The position numbers and the translations under genes were made by a program. From the IMG/VR virus record IMGVR_UViG_2657244943_000008, positions 1 through 10,588 of that record: a stretch of DNA of 10,588 nucleotides; one strand, 5' to 3'. Positions 528 through 10,588 of the stretch are shown here, piece by piece. The notes below the pieces were generated by a model. The model made no database searches, was not told the DNA's origin, and saw only the letters and a list, made by a program, of their open reading frames with translations. Source of the DNA: a virus. Lineage: Duplodnaviria > Heunggongvirae > Uroviricota > Caudoviricetes. Position 1 is the stretch's first letter; each line of letters opens with the position of its first letter.

Positions 528-878
528 TTACGCCGCTGCAATCTTCAGCAGTTTGATGGCCTGCGAATCGACCAGCATCCCGCCGGTGCGCTTGGTGGTA
601 TAAAAACCGACAAACGGTTTATTGGTGTACGGGTCACGCAGAATGCGGGTGCCGATACGGTCAACGATGGTGTAACCCCGTTTGAAGTTACCAAATGCAA
701 TGGCTTTCGCATCAGCGGCGATATCCGGCATCTGTTCGTTTTCAGCGATACCGTAACCCGCCAGAGAGGACGGCTGCCCCAGCTCCAGCCCCGGACGCCA
801 CAGATAGTTAACCGCCCATGACAGACAGACGATGATGCAGATAACCAGAGCGGAGATAATCGCGGTTAATCTGTTCAT
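528..878 (-). CDS. Rz-like inner-membrane protein (i-spanin-like N-terminal anchor with a divergent C-terminal domain)
   Basis: The ATG at 878 overlaps the TGA of the endolysin gene (ATGA), which is the lambda R/Rz arrangement. The first ~24 aa (MNRLTAIISALVICIIVCLSWAVN) closely match the lambda Rz N-terminal TM anchor as I recall it. The remaining ~90 aa (…GYGIAENEQMPDIAADAKAIAFGNFKRGYTIVDRIGTRILRDPYTNKPFVGFYTTKRTGGMLVDSQ…) do not resemble the Rz coiled-coil domain. Confidence 0.6.
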   Translation of the reverse strand: MNRLTAIISALVICIIVCLSWAVNYLWRPGLELGQPSSLAGYGIAENEQMPDIAADAKAIAFGNFKRGYTIVDRIGTRILRDPYTNKPFVGFYTTKRTGGMLVDSQAIKLLKIAAA

Positions 879-1351
879 ACCTCAATCTCTCTGACCATTC
901 CGCCCGCTTCTTTGAATTTTGCAATCAGGCTGTCAGCCTTATGCTCGAACTGACCATAACCAGCGCCCGGCAGTGAAGCCCAGATATTGCTGCAACGGTC
1001 GATAGCCTGACGAATATCACCGCGATCAATCATCGGTAAAGCGCCACGCTCTTTAATCTGTTGCAGTGCCACAGCGTCCTGGCTTTTCGGAGAGAAGTCT
1101 TTCAGGCCAAGCTGCTTGCGGTAAGCATCCCACCAGCGTGAAAGAAGTTGATAACGGCCTGCAGCTGTTGATTTGAGTTTCGGGTTTAGCGTGACAAGTT
1201 TGCGAGGGTGATCGGAGTAATCAGTGAAGAGTTCTCCACCGACAATAACGTCATAACCGTGGTTACGTGTCGGTTGTCGCCCGTTATCCGTTCCCTCTGA
1301 CCATGCCACCATATCCAGGAAAGCTTTACGCTGGGAATTTAGTACCTGCAT
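875..1351 (-). CDS. R: Endolysin, lambda R-type lytic transglycosylase (158 aa)
   Basis: Translation MQVLNSQRKAFLDMVAWSEGTDNGRQPTRNHGYDVIVGGELFTDYSDHP…REIEV is nearly identical over its full length to lambda gpR as I recall it (same 158-aa length, catalytic Glu in the WSEGT motif). A strong AAGGAG RBS lies 6 nt upstream of the ATG, inside the end of the holin gene. Confidence 0.92.
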   Translation of the reverse strand: MQVLNSQRKAFLDMVAWSEGTDNGRQPTRNHGYDVIVGGELFTDYSDHPRKLVTLNPKLKSTAAGRYQLLSRWWDAYRKQLGLKDFSPKSQDAVALQQIKERGALPMIDRGDIRQAIDRCSNIWASLPGAGYGQFEHKADSLIAKFKEAGGMVREIEV

Positions 1352-1354
1352 AAA

Positions 1355-1681
1355 TTACTCCTTAGAGCCACCAAACTTGTTACCGATTACTCTCATTGCA
1401 GCCCCACGAATAGCATCAACACCGATCAGCCCCACCCCACCACCAATGGCAACAGATAGTGATTTAGGCCATCCGACATACTCAAGAGCGGATGCAAAAG
1501 TCAGCGTCAGAGCGCCACAGAGTAGAATTTCGAGTGTTTTTCGCTTCCAGCCGCCACCACCGCCAAAATAGGCAATACGTAAACCAGCCATAACAATCGA
1601 CATAATCACTGCGCCCAGCGGTGTGTCTCCACGCCACCAGCTCTGGACCAACTCCAGCCATGTATTTGGGTTATGAGGCAT
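1355..1681 (-). CDS. S: Holin, class I with three predicted TM segments (108 aa)
   Basis: Sits immediately upstream of the endolysin on the same strand. Three hydrophobic stretches (GAVIMSIVMAGLRIAYF, LEILLCGALTLTFASALEYV, LSVAIGGGVGLIGVDAI) and a charged C-terminus, the same architecture as lambda S. GAGGTGAGAG lies upstream of the ATG at 1681. Sequence similarity to lambda S is modest. Confidence 0.75.
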   Translation of the reverse strand: MPHNPNTWLELVQSWWRGDTPLGAVIMSIVMAGLRIAYFGGGGGWKRKTLEILLCGALTLTFASALEYVGWPKSLSVAIGGGVGLIGVDAIRGAAMRVIGNKFGGSKE

Positions 1682-1822
1682 TTGTAGTTATCTCTCACCT
1701 CGCTGATACAGCAGGTGCAAATTGAGGAAACATCATGTACCGCAAATCAGAAGCGGAAACGTCAAAGAAGCCGAGTCAATGGATAACTGCGGGATAGGCT
1801 AGGACCAAGGAATCCCCAGACC

Positions 1823-1855
1823 CAGAAACGACAAAACCCGCTCGATGGCGGGTTT
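1823..1855 (-). terminator. Intrinsic-terminator-like hairpin oriented on the minus strand (possible tR'-like late-operon terminator)
   Basis: Plus strand shows AAACCCG-ctcgatgg-CGGGTTT at 1834-1855. On the minus strand the stem is followed by TTTTGTCGTTTCT. It lies ~150 bp upstream of the holin start, at the boundary between ~50% GC phage DNA and the AT-rich cassette. Confidence 0.45.
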
Positions 1856-1900
1856 AAGCTGTGTGGCGAAGTAAGCACACTTAACAGATTACGATATTTT

Positions 1901-1929
1901 TTGCGTACGCGTTAGTGTTTTGATAGAAT
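1901..1929 (+). promoter_or_regulatory. Sigma70-like promoter for the two-gene cassette (TTGCGT, 17 bp spacer, TG-n-TAGAAT extended -10)
   Basis: -35 TTGCGT at 1901-1906, 17-bp spacer, TG at 1921-1922, -10 TAGAAT at 1924-1929. This would give a ~37-nt leader to the ATG at 1973, which has GGGA 6 nt upstream. Motif match only, no experimental support. Confidence 0.45.
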
Positions 1930-1972
1930 TTTCAGCCACATAAAAATTCATTCTTATAATTCGGGATATATA

Positions 1973-3148
1973 ATGGATATAACTTGTTTAGAATGTGGCA
2001 ATGTTCTTGACGACCCAACTGTAGCTTGCGATAAATGCGGTGCCACGCCTCATGTTGTAGTGCTGGGCAAACAATCGTACTTTCCTATTGGTGCTGTAAC
2101 AGCAAATCTTGAAAAAAATGATTCAAGAGCATTTGATTATCGATTAGGTGAAGTTTGGGATCTAAAAAATGAAGTCACATCTGAATTCATAACCAGAATT
2201 GAGAAAAAATTTAGCCGAAAAAACAAATTTCATAACTTCCTAGACTCAGATCACAACCCTTCATCCATTCCTACGATCCTAAAAAAATACATTAATAAAA
2301 ATAATGAATTCATTGATTTATCTAGAGCTATAATAGAGAAGCTTAAACATAATGCTAATAACGAATCGAGAGTTGCCCAACTTCAGGGGGGGAGCGTTGT
2401 TTTCATCCACTATAAGTCTACCGAACCAGAGGATTTGGGGAAACTTCTAATCGTAATGGTTGATAAACAAAGCGCCTATGACTTTGATTCGGATAAGTTG
2501 ACCCCAACAAGATTAAATCCAATTAATACCGATGCCTTACGGCAGGCTGCGATGTTCGATTTAACTTTATTCGAAGCCAGTTATCCAGAAAACAAGGGTG
2601 ACTCATATGTACATTTCTTGCAAGGTAAATCTAAAAGCGATTTTTTCAAAGACTCATTAGGTTGCCGACATGATTCGGACAATAAAAGAAGCATTCAGCA
2701 ATTATTCAGTGCTATAGATATTTTTGCTAGTAAAAACTCACTCGGTCGTGTACTGCGTGATACTATTGACAATGAAGTTAAATCCTTACTGGAAAAAAAA
2801 TCAAAAGATAAACACGGAAATAAGTCCGTTAAGATAGAGGATATTTCAAAAATAATTGACTCATGCCTGACTGATTCACACAAATGTAAGGGAACGTTTG
2901 TCGATTTTGTTAATCTTAATGGTTTCCAGATTGACCCTCAATTTGAACCAACTCCTAAAGCAGCTGAAAGCGCGCTTACAATTGAAGTGGCAGATAACGA
3001 CAATAATTTTAAGTTGAAAATAATGCGTGGAGCTATTGGAGACGAAAAGTCAAATAAGCCTGTAATTCTCACTGACAACAAATGCGAAATTGTGATAAAA
3101 TTGAGTCAGGCAAATTATGATGAACTCAAAAGATATAGAGACAGCTAA
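1973..3148 (+). CDS. Zinc-ribbon plus NdpA/YejK-like nucleoid-associated-domain protein (391 aa); cassette gene 1
   Basis: N-terminal CxxC…CxxC (CLECGN…CDKCG). The central and C-terminal region aligns by eye to E. coli YejK/NdpA as I recall it: GGSVVFIHYKS…LLIVMVDKQ versus GGIVLFCHYRY…LLVAVLNN, and YVHFLQGKSKSDFFKDSLG versus [22 protein letters not shown]. About 30% GC against ~50% in flanking phage genes. Confidence 0.6.
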   Translation: MDITCLECGNVLDDPTVACDKCGATPHVVVLGKQSYFPIGAVTANLEKNDSRAFDYRLGEVWDLKNEVTSEFITRIEKKFSRKNKFHNFLDSDHNPSSIPTILKKYINKNNEFIDLSRAIIEKLKHNANNESRVAQLQGGSVVFIHYKSTEPEDLGKLLIVMVDKQSAYDFDSDKLTPTRLNPINTDALRQAAMFDLTLFEASYPENKGDSYVHFLQGKSKSDFFKDSLGCRHDSDNKRSIQQLFSAIDIFASKNSLGRVLRDTIDNEVKSLLEKKSKDKHGNKSVKIEDISKIIDSCLTDSHKCKGTFVDFVNLNGFQIDPQFEPTPKAAESALTIEVADNDNNFKLKIMRGAIGDEKSNKPVILTDNKCEIVIKLSQANYDELKRYRDS

Positions 3149-3150
3149 TA

Positions 3151-4365
3151 ATGACAATTGCTGATGACTTATCAAGATTAGCGCAGATTATTAACGGAGC
3201 CTCAAGCAGAGTTGAGGGCTACTACACTGTCATAACTCTTGAAGAAAGCATTGTTATTGTAAATAGTTCTGAAATAATTAGACTGTTACAATCTATAGGT
3301 TATAAAAAGGCAACAACCTGCATCGAAAATAATGAAATTTGGCTAGATCGCCAAGCTTCATCTTGGGATGATGCTATAATTTATGAGAATGTTGAGTCTT
3401 TTTGGTCTAGAGTAAACACCCAAAACGCTCTTCCGAAAAATTATATCATCGGAACGCCGTTAATACTCCCTACTTCTAAGAATGAAAGCATCGAAAAAAT
3501 CCATATTTTCTTTATGTGGAAAGATATCCTTTCATTAATTTCTGATCATCATAACAGTGACTGCTCTGTCTTATTTTTCACCAATGAAGACAAAAGTTAT
3601 ACAGTCGAACTCACGCATTTTTTACAATATAGCGAGATTAATCGCTTATCGAACTCGTCTCTTAAATATGAAATTATAAAGGAGCTTCTCGACACAATAA
3701 AAATCAATGATTTACACAAAAGCGAGCGCAAGCTCGTTATACGCTCAGCCATAAACGAAGTATTTAAAGCAAATGGTACGTTCAATTTCTTTGACTTGCT
3801 TAACTCTACTGAACTCGTCAGGAAAAAATATGATGAACTATATGAGATTTACACAAAGAGGTTTTCTGTAAATAAAATTCTTAACGAACTCGATGAGAAA
3901 AATCTTGAGTTCACGAGTAAAATTAACGAATTCATATCATCTAATCAGACAAAAGCATTGACTATTCCCGGTGCATTAATAGCAGCTGGTGGCTTAGTGA
4001 AGGCTAATGAAACAACCGAAGCAATATTGATTATCGCAGGACTTTGGATGATAAAAAAAGTCAATTACATTTCTATTGAGATATTCAATGAAACATTCGA
4101 CAACTTACGTTCTCGAGTGGAGTCCGCTTTCGATAAGTATTTAAAGTTTGAAGAAAATAAAGAAATCAAAGATAATGCAGATAGTATTAAGAGTAGCATT
4201 ACAGGTTTGATTGATAAAGCTAAAAAAAGGATGAGAACTGTTAAATATCTCGCATCAGCCATGTTTTATGGAGGCCTTATTTACGTTGGATATAAACAGT
4301 TCCCAGTCTTTTTTGAAAAATCGGCAGTAAATCTATTTTATTTTTTATGCCATACTATAAGCTAA
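3151..4365 (+). CDS. Hypothetical protein with C-terminal hydrophobic (membrane-anchoring) segments (404 aa); cassette gene 2
   Basis: ATG at 3151 is 2 nt after the gene-1 TAA (TAATAATG), indicating translational coupling. The N-terminal ~260 aa are soluble with no motif I recognise. The C-terminal part has hydrophobic stretches ALTIPGALIAAGGLV, AILIIAGLWMI and VKYLASAMFYGGLIYVGY. Its 3' end overlaps the Q gene convergently by 21 nt. AT-rich. Confidence 0.6.
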   Translation: MTIADDLSRLAQIINGASSRVEGYYTVITLEESIVIVNSSEIIRLLQSIGYKKATTCIENNEIWLDRQASSWDDAIIYENVESFWSRVNTQNALPKNYIIGTPLILPTSKNESIEKIHIFFMWKDILSLISDHHNSDCSVLFFTNEDKSYTVELTHFLQYSEINRLSNSSLKYEIIKELLDTIKINDLHKSERKLVIRSAINEVFKANGTFNFFDLLNSTELVRKKYDELYEIYTKRFSVNKILNELDEKNLEFTSKINEFISSNQTKALTIPGALIAAGGLVKANETTEAILIIAGLWMIKKVNYISIEIFNETFDNLRSRVESAFDKYLKFEENKEIKDNADSIKSSITGLIDKAKKRMRTVKYLASAMFYGGLIYVGYKQFPVFFEKSAVNLFYFLCHTIS

Positions 4366-4701
4366 CATTGCTAAACAGCCATCAACAAACCCCATTGCAG
4401 TTTGCAGTTCCTTCCTAATTGTGCCATCAGAGCATTTTCTCTTCTTCGCAATAGTGCGTAATGAGATACCGATAACAAAGTGGGCGATGATGAGCTCATA
4501 TTCATCTGGTTTATACCTTCTCAACCGAGCCACACAACTGTCTATCATGATGCCTTCGTCATCATCACACTGAATCCGTGACTTTTTGCCATGAGGTAAA
4601 AGTCCCTTGAAACCAGCCGCTATCGGCTGCCAGTCCACTCCGCTATTGTCTGAAGCAGCCCAAGCTCCCCAACGATCCATTACTTCATACATATCACGCA
4701 T
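4345..4701 (-). CDS. Q: Late-gene antiterminator Q, short QuuD-like family (118 aa from the ATG at 4701)
   Basis: Translation [35 protein letters not shown]…CDDD… resembles DLP12 QuuD as I recall it ([35 protein letters not shown]…CDDD…). The track ORF begins at a TTG at 4716; the ATG at 4701 with GGAGAAAG upstream is the more likely start. Confidence 0.8.
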   Translation of the reverse strand: [118 protein letters not shown]

Positions 4702-4887
4702 CAACTTTCTCCACAAAATCAGGCCAGCACACCAATTGCCAGCGCACGATCGATAAGACCAGGGACAATTACTGACTCTTGCCGGTGAGCCTGACGGAAA
4801 ACTCCGCGCAGCAGGTCATTAATATCGTTCTTAATTAACTGATTATTTATCTCATCACTGAATATCTTTATATAGTGAGGACTTATT

Positions 4888-5712
4888 ATGTCTCAGAACT
4901 TAGACGCAACCGCAATTAATCAAATCCATGCCCTTATTTCTGCTCAGGGTGTTAATGAAATTATCAGTAAGATTGGTGCCGACGCAGTGGCATTACCTGA
5001 AAATTTCCGCATTCATGATCTGGAAAAATTTAATTTAAATCGCTTCCGTTTCCGTGGCGCGCTTTCCACTGCCTGCATCGATGACTTTATCCGTTATTCT
5101 AAAGATCTTGCAGATGAAGGCACCCGCTGCTTTATCGATGCCGATAATATGCGTGCCGTCAGTGTTCTTAACCTGGGTACTATTGATGAACCAGGTCACG
5201 CAGATAATACCGCCACTCTCAAACTGAAAAAGACAGCACCGTTCTCTGCACTGTTGTCTGTTAACGGCGAGCGTAACTCCCAGAAGTCACTGGCAGAATG
5301 GATTGAAGACTGGGCCGACTACCTTGTGGGCTTTGATGCTAATGGTGACGCCATTCAGGCAACAAAAGCGGCTGCGGCAGTCCGTAAAATCACAATTGAA
5401 GCGAACCAGACTGCTGATTTTGAAGACAATGACTTCAGCGGCAAACGCTCCCTGATGGAGTCTGTCGAAGCGAAGACCAAAGACATTATGCCAGTGGCAT
5501 TTGAATTTAAATGCGTTCCGTTTGAAGGTCTGAAAGAACGTTCTTTTAAATTACGCCTCAGCATTATCACTGGCGATCGTCCTGTACTTGTTCTGCGCAT
5601 TATTCAGCTGGAGGCTGTGCAGGAAGAAATGGCTAACGAATTTCGCGATCTGCTTGTTGAGAAATTCAAAGACAGCAAAGTAGAAACCTTTATTGGTACT
5701 TTCACCGCCTGA
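4888..5712 (+). CDS. yfdQ: DUF2303-family prophage protein, YfdQ-like (274 aa)
   Basis: Length and N-terminus ([14 protein letters not shown]…) match my recollection of E. coli CPS-53 YfdQ. It is followed by a YfdR-like HD-domain gene, as in CPS-53. GAGG RBS 8 nt upstream. Function unknown. Confidence 0.6.
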
Positions 5713-7920: not shown

Positions 7921-8886
7921 TCATTTCTTAAATTTAAGAATTTCTTTTAAGGCTTCTACTATATTTTTATCCCCATCCATGCTAATTTTCTCCTTCTCAA
8001 GAGAAACCGTAGTCTGCCCTTTTTCAAGAACAAAATTACGTTCTGTAGCCATGAGATTTTTAATAACCTCACCCATTAAGTCTTCGTTTCTAATGCCCTT
8101 AAGAAACTTTATCGCCAAAACTTTGGAATCGATATTGGTAAGCTCATTTTGAAAATACTTGACCTCATCAAAACCATTTTTGTACAACTTCAAGAAGAAA
8201 TAAGCAAATAGTTCAACGACAATTACAAATGATAATTTGGGGGCCATGTGAAGTATATATTCAAGCTTATCATTTGTGTTAATAGCATTTGTAACTGAAT
8301 ATCCAAGGTAAAGTATCCCACCAAAAGCAATAAATGCACCTAAAACCAGATTAACCCCACCACGTCTATTTAATCTATTTATTTCATTTTCTAAACGATA
8401 TACAATATCATTATAGTGTTTACTAATTTCTATTTGATTTCTAAACGAATTTATATCATTTTTCAAACTTAAATCTGCAGCCAAGAGAGTATTGCCTACA
8501 ATCTTTTTTTTAGCATTATCGATCAACTCTTGCCTTTCTTTTGATGTGAGTAAAACACCATTTAAATCTTTCGAATCATTTGTAACTAGTTGATTAAACT
8601 CTTGCTTTAAGGAGTCTAATTCTGACTTTAACTCTTCATATGAGTTAACATTCTTGTTTTTACTTTCACCTATTCCTTTATTAACATAATTTAATAAAAA
8701 TGCTGCCATAAAAGTTAAAATCAGAGTTGCAATAAAGAAACTATTTTCATCTTGAAGTATTTTAGCAACAGTGGAAAAATAACTTACGAGAAGAGGCTGA
8801 GCATTATAAAGCCCCATTCCTAACAAAACTGCAATTGCCGTACCTAAAACGAACCTTACTTCTTGTCTTTTTAGTAACCTATTCAT
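7921..8886 (-). CDS. Four-TM membrane protein with central coiled-coil and C-terminal soluble region (321 aa); candidate membrane effector
   Basis: Hydrophobic segments VRFVLGTAIAVLLGMGLY, FFIATLILTFMAAFLLNYV, VNLVLGAFIAFGGILYLGY and LSFVIVVELFAYFFLKLY. The linker between TM2 and TM3 (ELKSELDSLKQEFNQL…RLENEINRLNRR) is heptad-like. About 28% GC. Weak GGTG RBS. No confident family assignment. Confidence 0.6.
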   Translation of the reverse strand: MNRLLKRQEVRFVLGTAIAVLLGMGLYNAQPLLVSYFSTVAKILQDENSFFIATLILTFMAAFLLNYVNKGIGESKNKNVNSYEELKSELDSLKQEFNQLVTNDSKDLNGVLLTSKERQELIDNAKKKIVGNTLLAADLSLKNDINSFRNQIEISKHYNDIVYRLENEINRLNRRGGVNLVLGAFIAFGGILYLGYSVTNAINTNDKLEYILHMAPKLSFVIVVELFAYFFLKLYKNGFDEVKYFQNELTNIDSKVLAIKFLKGIRNEDLMGEVIKNLMATERNFVLEKGQTTVSLEKEKISMDGDKNIVEALKEILKFKK

Positions 8887-8970
8887 TATGACACCATATG
8901 TTATTATTTAACGTTTTATTAAATTCAAAATACTGCCCGAGATTTTAATACTCATAACAAAATAAGAATT

Positions 8971-9000
8971 AATATACAAAATTTTTCATACTACAAGCAA
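8971..9000 (-). promoter_or_regulatory. Candidate sigma70 promoter for the 4-TM gene (minus strand: TTGCTT, 18 bp spacer, TATATT)
   Basis: Minus-strand -35 TTGCTT (plus 8995-9000) and -10 TATATT (plus 8971-8976) with an 18-bp spacer, about 85 nt upstream of the ATG at 8886. AT-rich context, so motif matches are weak evidence. Confidence 0.3.
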
Positions 9001-9004
9001 GGCT

Positions 9005-9090
9005 TTGATAAATTGTTTTGATAACGATTTGATAACCGTTAGAAATCTAATAATAAAAACGGGAGCCATCAGACTTCCGTTTTTGATAAC
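9005..9090. repeat. Four direct copies of TTGATAA(C) upstream of the 4-TM gene promoter
   Basis: TTGATAA at 9005-9011, TTGATAAC at 9018-9025, 9029-9036 and 9083-9090; the middle pair is spaced 11 bp (one helical turn). One copy on the minus strand reads tATCAAatcgTTA, matching the IHF WATCAANNNNTTR consensus. Possible operator or architectural sites. Confidence 0.4.
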
Positions 9091-9448
9091 CCGGAGCCTA
9101 GATTTGGCTACCCCAGCAGGAAGATGCAACGTCCACGATTGTCACAAATCAGGCTGGCTCGAGGCAGAATGGCGACTGTGAGGGAGAAACGAAAGTTCAC
9201 ACTCGTTCTCACTGCTGATGGGGGGTTCACTAACAATCTCAAGCACTAATTAATGGACGAAACTCTACACAAAGCCCCATTTTGTAGGAAAACTGGTAAC
9301 GGATTAGTAATACTACCCGGCCAGAACATGACCGACCGGGTAAAAAAATATCCTGACGCTACTAAGCCTTTAAGATTTGACTAACCTAGTGCTTACATTA
9401 TAGAGAACTGCTTATGCCTTCTAAATTATAGAGTAAAAATACTCACCA

Positions 9449-10588
9449 CTAAAATACAACTTGCTTCCTTAGTAAATCACCTCTAGCATTTGAGTAATAT
9501 TCAGTCGAATTGCCAGTAACTTCCCGGAGTACTTCTGTTACAAGGTTATTTAGTATTCCCGTAAGTTTAAGAAACTCTCCATATGAATTAGGTTTCTCAA
9601 ATATCTTTCTGGTACCGTTCGGCACATCGAGCTGCATTGCAGCATCATGATCCTGGGCTAAGTGATTTAGCCAGCGGTGAGTCTCAACAAGTACAGCAAG
9701 TTCATAGTATGTACTATGACGGAGATTATTAGCATCTGCATGGTACATTAGTGAAGCAATATCATAGCTGCTTAGATCAATACTCGAACCTTCGTCTCCA
9801 CTGTCTGCTTTCAGGGTTTTGAGCATGCGAATTGATTTTCTTAATCCACCATTGCATTGATCGCATTTGTCTTTGATACGTTGCATGTGGAGGAACGGTT
9901 CATTGTAGATACGCTCTCGTTTGTTTTTATCAATTATGGTAACTCCACGATGTTCTTCTTTTTTTGTGAGTTGGTACTCTTTCGTATCCCACCATATGCC
10001 TGGCACTACATCAACTTCTCTTTGAAGACTCCCCCCCGTTATTCTCAAGGACTTGGCGTTATTATCGTCAACCTGAGCAGCAGGAAATGTCATTTTTAGA
10101 GCATCTCGAGCTGCACGCCTAAGTTCAATGATGACGTCTCGGCCATCTTTCTCAGCTGCACTATAGCTGCCAACTCCACCGCTATCATACATAAGCATCT
10201 GAGTATCAATAATTAAAAGATCTACATCACTGAAACCTTTGATATGGATATCTAGGGGAACAGAACCTTGTACCCGAAAATCTAGGTTTAGGTCTAATTT
10301 CTTAGTCAGCTGATTTTCAATACGATACGCGGTTTCGAATGAGATCTCTGTATAGCGGGGGTCAACTGGTTGCATCGCACCAATGACATACCGGATAGCT
10401 GAATCGTCTCTTCCTCTAGACTCCCAACTTTCATTAAGCTCAAGAGCATCTTCAAGCAATGCATATTTTTCAAGGCCATCATATCTTTGATTACTCATTG
10501 ATTCTGTGGCTACTCGCAACTGATCATATGTCCCTTTACGACGTGACTTCATGCGTTCAATACGCGAACTATATGATGAATTAGACAT
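9449..10588 (-). CDS. Pol-beta-superfamily nucleotidyltransferase with cGAS/DncV-like (CD-NTase/SMODS-like) active-site motifs (at least 379 aa; start at the window edge)
   Basis: GS…D-x-D motif (RVQGSVPLDIHIKGFSDVDLLII) and a downstream third acidic motif REVDVVPG, resembling the [DE]hDhhP of OAS/cGAS/DncV-type enzymes. About 42-48% GC. The ATG coincides with the last base of the window, so the true N-terminus may lie further upstream. Confidence 0.55.
   Translation of the reverse strand: MSNSSYSSRIERMKSRRKGTYDQLRVATESMSNQRYDGLEKYALLEDALELNESWESRGRDDSAIRYVIGAMQPVDPRYTEISFETAYRIENQLTKKLDLNLDFRVQGSVPLDIHIKGFSDVDLLIIDTQMLMYDSGGVGSYSAAEKDGRDVIIELRRAARDALKMTFPAAQVDDNNAKSLRITGGSLQREVDVVPGIWWDTKEYQLTKKEEHRGVTIIDKNKRERIYNEPFLHMQRIKDKCDQCNGGLRKSIRMLKTLKADSGDEGSSIDLSSYDIASLMYHADANNLRHSTYYELAVLVETHRWLNHLAQDHDAAMQLDVPNGTRKIFEKPNSYGEFLKLTGILNNLVTEVLREVTGNSTEYYSNARGDLLRKQVVF

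Follow-up and report, generated by a model that had tools for sequence, protein, structure and literature searches.

A 933W-type late promoter module probably displaced from Q by a defence cassette in an e14-like prophage

Positions 1682-1972 of the 10,588-nucleotide stretch of DNA analyzed here (the whole stretch is called the window) most likely form a compact divergent control region, in which a 933W-type late promoter (PR') module has been displaced from the antiterminator gene Q by a defence cassette. In the mechanism that we propose, Q would be produced from a gene at a distance of 2.4 kb and work in trans, binding a palindrome at 1910-1903, loading onto an RNA polymerase that has paused early in the leader, and carrying it through a hairpin at 1855-1823 into S-R. 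The promoter of the cassette, a predicted DS-1 system, would fire on the plus strand in the opposite direction to PR', and the cassette would sit in a recurrent slot bounded exactly by the Q stop codon and the PR' -35, interrupting nothing. The apparent disruption would then be the standard layout, with the late control region intact in form. The control region is ordinary and has a recurrent layout; the slot and the palindromes described below are the more interesting by-product.

The window is an exact match to E. coli ARS-C301 and belongs to a defective lambdoid prophage that resembles e14 and is located at icd. The Q protein (table 1) gave a weak match to the Q21 structures 6P18/6JNX and shares 91% identity with the Stx2a_1447 Q, 47% with the VT2-Sakai Q, and 23% with Q21. 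The ORF at 528-878 has an Rz-like N-terminus and continues as the C-terminal portion of a major capsid protein of phages (PF05065); this deletion joint, both halves of which are pseudogene fragments in RefSeq, marks the prophage as defective. Resemblance to other Q-bearing prophages ends at 4759, beyond which yfdQ/yfdR-like genes lie beside xis and int. The upstream nin/PR context of Q is lost, including the early region that would normally drive it, and deletion has also removed the structural genes; Q may go unexpressed in this remnant, and S and R may be expressed here by basal read-through only. Two further observations concern this setting. A terminator-like hairpin (4743-4723, minus strand) stands immediately ahead of the Q start codon. 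Between intE and icd, a CBASS-type island (7921-10588 of the window, minus strand; 18622-21908 of locus L009) encodes an oligonucleotide cyclase (9449-10588; PADLOC PDLC00772, 454 bits) and a 321-aa AT-rich protein (7921-8886) that had no match in Pfam, PADLOC, or NCBIfam, with a Cap15-family receptor just outside the window.

Table 1. Features of the late control region and its surroundings, by position in the window
Feature	Position	Strand	Basis and remarks
Rz fragment fused to capsid fragment	528-878	-	
Endolysin R	875-1351	-	
Holin S, lambda family, first late gene	1355-1681	-	PF05106, 88 bits, and RefSeq annotation; start codon 1681-1679
Untranslated leader, terminator to S	1682-1822	-	92-93% to SfII, ~76% to DLP12/PA-2 upstream of holin genes
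Intrinsic-terminator-like hairpin and U-tract (candidate tR')	1823-1855	-	Terminator scan, fold, Sakai homology
Leader hairpin 1 (GUGUG...CACAC)	1861-1879	-	Fold; aligns with Sakai 'putative Q-utilization' segment
Predicted PR' start	1879-1881	-	Homology to Sakai start
PR' -10 element TAATCT	1886-1891	-	Aligns with Sakai annotated -10 TATCAT; 3/6 consensus
Q-type-specific palindrome GCGTACGC	1903-1910	-	About -31 to -24; candidate Q-binding element
PR' -35 region (CTAACG / TAACGC)	1909-1915	-	Positional homologue of Sakai -35 TTTACG; <=3/6 consensus
Candidate sigma-70 cassette promoter, TTGATA 1920-1925 / AAAAAT 1942-1947	1920-1947	+	16-bp spacer; consensus 9/12
Variable segment between anchors (Q 3' end, PR' module)	1922-4372		Homology breakpoints, GC
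DS-1 defence gene A, 391 aa, zinc ribbon and YejK/NA37 nucleoid-associated domain	1973-3148	+	NCBIfam NF053868 DS1_1_antiphage, Pfam NA37
DS-1 defence gene B, 404 aa	3151-4365	+	NCBIfam NF053869 DS1_2_antiphage
Q antiterminator gene, 123 aa	4345-4716	-	PF06530, E 4e-47, 159 bits (cutoff 26); Q21/933W superfamily

The promoter-leader-terminator module covers ~90 bp at about 1915-1823 on the minus strand and reads CTAACGCGTACGCAAAAAATATCG TAATCT GTTAAGTGTGCTTACTTCGCCACACAGCTTAAACCCGCCATCGAGCGGGTTTT. It is sharply bounded in alignments, likeness to other lineages stopping abruptly just upstream of the -35, and the hairpin is its 3' end. Over ~85 bp, the DNA is homologous, base for base, to the PR'-tR' region of VT2-Sakai/933W (and H-19B), and the Q of VT2-Sakai belongs to the same Pfam family as the window Q. 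The homologous Sakai stretch is TTTACGATCGTAAAAATCTGCATATCATGATAAGAGTGGTTACATTGCCACGCAGTCGAACCCGCCGATGCGCGGGTTTTTTT, and the features common to Sakai and the window include the -35 position, the A-rich spacer, the -10, the start region AAGAGTGG, the first leader hairpin, and the G+C hairpin with its U-tract. The VT2-Sakai record has a 'putative late promoter' at the 3' end of Q, with TTTACG as its -35 and TATCAT as its -10, together with a segment marked 'putative Q-utilization' and a terminator. The Sakai PR' start lies 258 nt before the 3' end of tR' by dRNA-seq and Term-seq (PMC7547250). In the Sakai locus L090, this start corresponds to about 640-642, at AAGAG, 5-7 nt after the -10. Because the block is homologous to an annotated and dRNA-seq-supported promoter, we identify it as the probable PR'.

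The original prediction, made from the letters of the window, had proposed a comparison with phages of the same Q family, and it is this comparison that aligned the block with the annotated PR' of VT2-Sakai/933W. One of its options, a PR' and Q-utilization (qut) site within 1857-1972 divergent from the cassette promoter, is favored by the conserved module at about 1915-1823, whereas its view of the control region as interrupted did not hold, the hairpin being the end of a conserved PR' module found 3' of Q in relatives. Sakai and the window also differ in several respects. The Sakai module overlaps the Q stop codon, whereas that of the window lies 2.4 kb off, behind an antisense cassette; the Sakai palindrome is ACGATCGT and that of the window GCGTACGC; the -35 and -10 of the window are weaker; and Sakai continues with another terminator, 200 nt further along, and with the stx genes, whereas in the window S follows after 142 nt.

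Within the -10 element, positions 1, 2, and 6 (T, A, T) were invariant and positions 3-5 varied in an alignment of 15 lineages. An alternative -10, TATCGT at 1896-1891, which would leave TAAG as a pause element in the manner of phage 21, was rejected, its hexamer not being conserved in DLP12 and phiP27, whereas that at 1891-1886 is. The predicted leader runs for ~55 nt from the start to the hairpin. Within leader hairpin 1, TACTTC occupies +7 to +12 and is without the final T of a -10-like hexamer, whereas its Sakai counterpart is the better -10-like TACATT; leader hairpin 1 with TACTTC is a candidate sigma-dependent pause or qut region. We infer promoter activity and the pause site from the homology, geometry, and conservation observed, and, as far as its letters go, the PR' module of the window is intact. 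By consensus, PR' is weak in this Q clade; a generic promoter scan of 1300-5000 did not list it and, with 12 sites against 10.7 expected, was uninformative. The A-rich DNA upstream of PR' is semi-conserved, but it doubles as the cassette promoter region.

A minus-strand hairpin with a U-tract had been described ~150 bp before S, and we confirmed this candidate tR', the end of its T-tail standing 142 bp from the S start codon. On the minus strand, the 5' arm AAACCCGC (1855-1848), the loop CATCGA (1847-1842), and the 3' arm GCGGGTTT (1841-1834) make up a G+C-rich stem of 8 bp, with the tail TGTCGTTTCT at 1833-1824. It ranks first among the 8 terminator-like sites in 1300-5000, where 2.9 +/- 2.0 were expected from shuffles, and its predicted fold of -12.5 kcal/mol (z = -2.57; equaled by 4 of 200 shuffles) exceeds chance only modestly for a single sequence. 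A 28-mer over the 5' arm is present in a single copy in the window (0 expected by chance) and was seen again 3' of Q in ~200 related loci, and this conservation is stronger support for the putative terminator than its folding energy.

Of the terminators annotated after the VT2-Sakai PR', the first is homologous to the candidate tR'. Loci L034 and L035 keep the same Q, the DS-1 cassette, the promoter, the palindrome, and the early leader, with the hairpin replaced by 2 unrelated intrinsic terminators; because these analogous, non-homologous terminators substitute for it, a terminator function at this position is supported. The 258-nt PR' transcript of Sakai passes through the homologue of the window hairpin (PMC7547250), and for this reason the hairpin may be an inefficient terminator; its U-tract is short and broken (UUUUGUCGUUU), and the termination efficiency, as deduced from these features, may be partial. 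No second terminator-like site was found by the terminator scan between the hairpin and S, and an Rfam search of 1500-2200 returned chance-level matches only (E >= 0.5). L034 and L035 present a mosaic joint within the leader: from ~+20 onward (9790-10640 of L035, and also in L034), 2 tandem intrinsic terminators are accompanied by a different lysis cassette with membrane proteins of 130 and 93 aa and a 204-aa chitinase-like endolysin.

BLAST searches against phage records showed that window 1921-1682 is 92% identical to the DNA upstream of the holin gene of Shigella phage SfII, and that 1946-1833 alone is found in cdtI phage, phiP27, Stx2a_1447/WGPS2, Stx1 phages, PA-2, and the DLP12 segment of phage 434B. 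The order in those phages is Q, one or two genes, the block, and the late genes, and the intervening genes are antisense, phiP27 excepted. Complete genomes with the window layout include SfII, SfIV, cdtI, phiP27, and the Stx2a_1447 provirus; PA-2, which shares the layout, is a fragment of 2.8 kb only.

In DLP12/PA-2 (quuD - nmpC(lc) - essD), Q is followed by an antisense porin moron, the same module, and a holin gene, with 74-76% identity over window 1909-1696. The cargo there is a porin gene, whereas that of the window is a defence system; moreover, 190 bp with hairpins lie between Q and the porin 3' end, and ~400 bp, holding a separately described RpoE-dependent promoter, lie between the porin start and the module. 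The 190 bp (1470-1660 of L008, the DLP12 segment in 434B) form 4 hairpins from the Q stop codon to the nmpC 3' end and coincide with the region assigned to IpeX RNA, processed from the porin transcript; in SfII, Stx2a_1447, cdtI, and the window, Q abuts the cargo within ~25 bp, unlike DLP12. Two candidate maps of a PR' transcript were rejected in DLP12, namely the IpeX sRNA as a PR' leader, since processing of the opposite-strand porin transcript gives rise to it, and the 'promoter region' of Pasqua et al., whose primers put +1 ~350 bp upstream of the module, which is the RpoE promoter.

We surveyed the arrangement in 2 sets of IMG/VR loci. The first comprised 80 loci picked by Q similarity alone (86-99% Q identity), and in 74 of them the leader core was found 3' of Q on the same strand, at distances of 1.3-3.8 kb that fell into 14 or more size classes; it never adjoined Q. 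Among the other 6, L022, L044, and L081 are probably too short to contain the module, judged from locus lengths, L034 and L035 have the variant leader described above, and L089 has a diverged copy; the module was thus 3' of Q in every related locus with enough sequence to check. The second set comprised 120 further loci picked by an exact 39-mer of the leader, a selection that inflates apparent conservation downstream of the -10. Pooling gave 183 records with both Q and the core, with a few contigs fetched twice. Of these records, 27 had an empty site like that of Sakai, the distance from the Q stop codon to the core being 27-44 nt, and the other 156 had filled sites, their inserts falling into 29 sequence clusters. 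Because the empty-site relatives show it there, the module can be taken as the element that normally abuts Q. All 110 loci with the window type of Q have an insert with the module beyond.

The palindrome overlapping the -35 region varies with the type of Q. It is 8-9 bp long across types, the window having a single 8-bp palindrome. The form found in the window was present in 110 of 110 records with the window/SfII-type Q, GCGGTCCGC in 64 of 66 with the cdtI-type Q, ACGTACGT or ACAATCGT with the DLP12-type Q (3 and 2 records), GGAATTCC with the phiP27 Q (2 records), and the Sakai form with the Sakai Q (1 record). In one lineage pair with identical flanks, the palindrome centre alone differs (TTAAC-GCGTACGC-AAAAATTCTTGTAATCT versus TTAAC-GCGGTCCGC-AAAAATTCTTGTAATCT), and, whatever the palindrome type, the sequence is nearly the same from the -10 on. 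The palindrome follows the Q type and not the cassette or the late genes.

Phage 21, whose Q21-QBE-PR' cassette is represented by structures 6P18/6P1A, has (GenBank annotation OL657228) the -35, the Q-binding element (QBE), the -10, the start, the pause element, and the terminator within ~85 bp directly after Q, with a leader of ~50 nt. This compact element order matches that of the candidate elements in the window, both Q proteins belong to PF06530, and the phage 21 QBE sits in the same -35/-10 interval as the window palindrome. The QBE, however, consists of two directly repeated 8-bp subsites, ATTGAGCA and AATGAGCA, whereas the window interval holds GCGTACGCAAAAAA, and the Q21-type direct repeat is absent from the whole window at up to 3 mismatches. 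The window palindrome is a candidate Q-binding element, and we infer binding from the association of palindrome and Q type seen across the records. Because no insert cluster is shared between Q types in the 183 records, this association could partly reflect linkage and not selection. No Q-binding element annotation for a 933W-type Q was present in the records examined.

We put forward, tentatively and with rather less than even confidence, a joint reading in which the Q stop/-35 junction is a recombination-anchored exchange slot and this Q branch reads a short palindrome. In the palindrome part of this reading, the palindrome may overlap the -35 position and replace a consensus -35. If this is true, binding would be that of a symmetric dimer, unlike the tandem protomers of Q21, and Q could help the promoter to fire as well as antiterminate. 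The 933W-type Q proteins control Shiga-toxin expression, and the Q-type palindromes offer testable predictions for their DNA recognition.

A palindrome in this position could also be the operator of another dimeric regulator, or the block could be kept mainly as a regulatory RNA gene. A structured RNA of ~55 nt is predicted here, and PR' leaders can be regulatory RNAs, StxS deriving from the PR' leader of Stx phages (PMC7547250); further, all variants of the element are palindromic, as opposed to the direct-repeat QBE of phage 21, and the window is devoid of a Q21-type QBE. We nevertheless consider this explanation unlikely, as no Rfam family was matched, the palindrome varies with Q and not with the cassette or the late genes, and an sRNA role would add to the role as promoter and terminator, not replace it.

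A different route to the late genes would be transcription from the early promoter PR, antiterminated by N, running past Q and across the cassette and leaving the block incidental. The original prediction had likewise envisaged, as one option, late transcription crossing 2.4 kb of antisense cassette. Minus-strand terminators between Q and the block are limited to weak matches at 3736 and 3354, and, in established lambda biology, some transcription can read through into the late genes without Q. Such a route leaves the conserved -10 pattern, the Q-type palindrome, and the terminator unexplained, however, and the early region is deleted in the window, so no upstream source of transcription remains. 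The overlap of Q and the cassette leaves no space for a promoter between them, and no relative with the window type of Q has a module beside Q. Passage across the cassette is not supported as the main route, and we regard this explanation as very unlikely.

That the cassette destroyed or displaced the original PR', leaving the late operon uncoupled and the hairpin an orphan or unrelated terminator, is barely credible: the Q stop codon overlaps the cassette with no promoter able to fit between, and the prophage has decayed (the Rz-capsid fusion and the loss of the Q upstream context at 4759), but the window-Q-type loci, complete phage genomes included, uniformly show an insert with the module beyond, the module is homologous to a mapped PR', and empty-site relatives have it at Q. 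The suggestion that the late operon is uncoupled from Q finds no support as a consequence of the cassette, since Q is a diffusible protein and complete phages have the same layout, and it stands insofar as the prophage is defective and the upstream context of Q has been lost.

The slot itself can be delimited. Homology between the window and 15 other cassette classes is lost on the Q side at 4359-4391 and returns on the PR' side at 1915-1931. The Q-side breakpoints fall in the last Q codons, and the C-terminus of Q differs as a result from one cassette class to another. Cassette exchange probably uses the conserved Q 3' end and PR' module as homologous-recombination anchors. The main ORFs are antisense in 28 of the 29 insert clusters, and GC is 0.29-0.46. 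Cargo classes were assigned from PADLOC and NCBIfam and comprise PDC-M53A/B in SfII, PDC-S33 in L085, PDC-S60 in L046, an NsnA/PD-T4-2-like protein with a methyltransferase in L042, PD-Lambda-1 in phiP27, DS-1 in the window, and the porin gene in DLP12 / PA-2. About half of the tested cargo types had no match in PADLOC/NCBIfam. In the slot part of the joint reading, the junction may accommodate at least 29 cargos, nearly all antisense and AT-rich, with the classified ones mostly defence.

Fixed slots with conserved flanks and alternative AT-rich antiphage cassettes have been described in P2-like phages and P4-like satellites (Rousset et al. 2022, PMC9122126). Those hotspots and the slot of the window are alike in combining a fixed position with swappable cargo and differ in phage group and slot; the window-type slot is internal to a regulatory unit, with the regulator gene on one side and the DNA target of the regulator on the other, and its cargo is nearly always antisense to the phage operon. 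We found no described defence hotspot at the Q/PR' slot in the searchable literature, which is not proof of absence. The layout indicates that kilobases of cargo can come between the gene for a regulator and the DNA on which it acts while the circuit stays unbroken. It also provides a recipe for finding cargo, namely a search of the DNA flanked on one side by a short PF06530 Q gene and on the other by the conserved leader GTTAAGAGTGGTTACTTCGCCACACAGCTTAAACCCGCC, and the cassette types without a PADLOC match (about half) are candidate new defence systems.

In the window, the slot is occupied by a two-gene plus-strand cassette (1973-4365) that separates Q from S, with a GC of 0.30-0.39 against about 0.50 in the flanks. 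Genes A and B are on the same strand, 2 bp apart, and the 3' end of gene B overlaps that of Q by 21 bp in convergent orientation, in agreement with the earlier statement that the Q stop codon abuts the antisense cassette. Gene A scored 451 bits with NF053868 (cutoff 330) and gene B 375 bits with NF053869 (cutoff 315). Both models being above cutoff, the cassette is classified as DS-1, and protection by the window copy is predicted. A system with a YejK nucleoid-associated domain is reported as validated in the DefensePredictor study (PMC13092281); the DS-1 assignment follows the NCBIfam model names, the parts of the PMC13092281 text available to us containing no tie between YejK and DS-1. PADLOC gave no match on the window cassette, its database being older than DS-1.

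The candidate cassette promoter is a pattern match only, in a scan whose promoter count is at chance level. It lies within cassette-specific DNA, its -35 being 5-9 bp from the -35 side of PR'. No plus-strand terminator was found after gene B (4345-4420). Cassette transcripts probably run on antisense into Q. Speculatively, they could thereby lower Q activity in lysogens, in the way of the antisense promoter paQ of lambda and phage 21.

A recurrent insert plan was also seen among the cargos. The inserts of L047, L038, L003, L058, L002, L048, L001, L093, and L107 encode a protein of ~270-350 aa and then a multi-pass membrane protein of ~150-195 aa, both genes being antisense. Among such inserts, only the SfII and L048 types match PADLOC (PDC-M53), and the unclassified inserts of this plan may be distant relatives or new systems.
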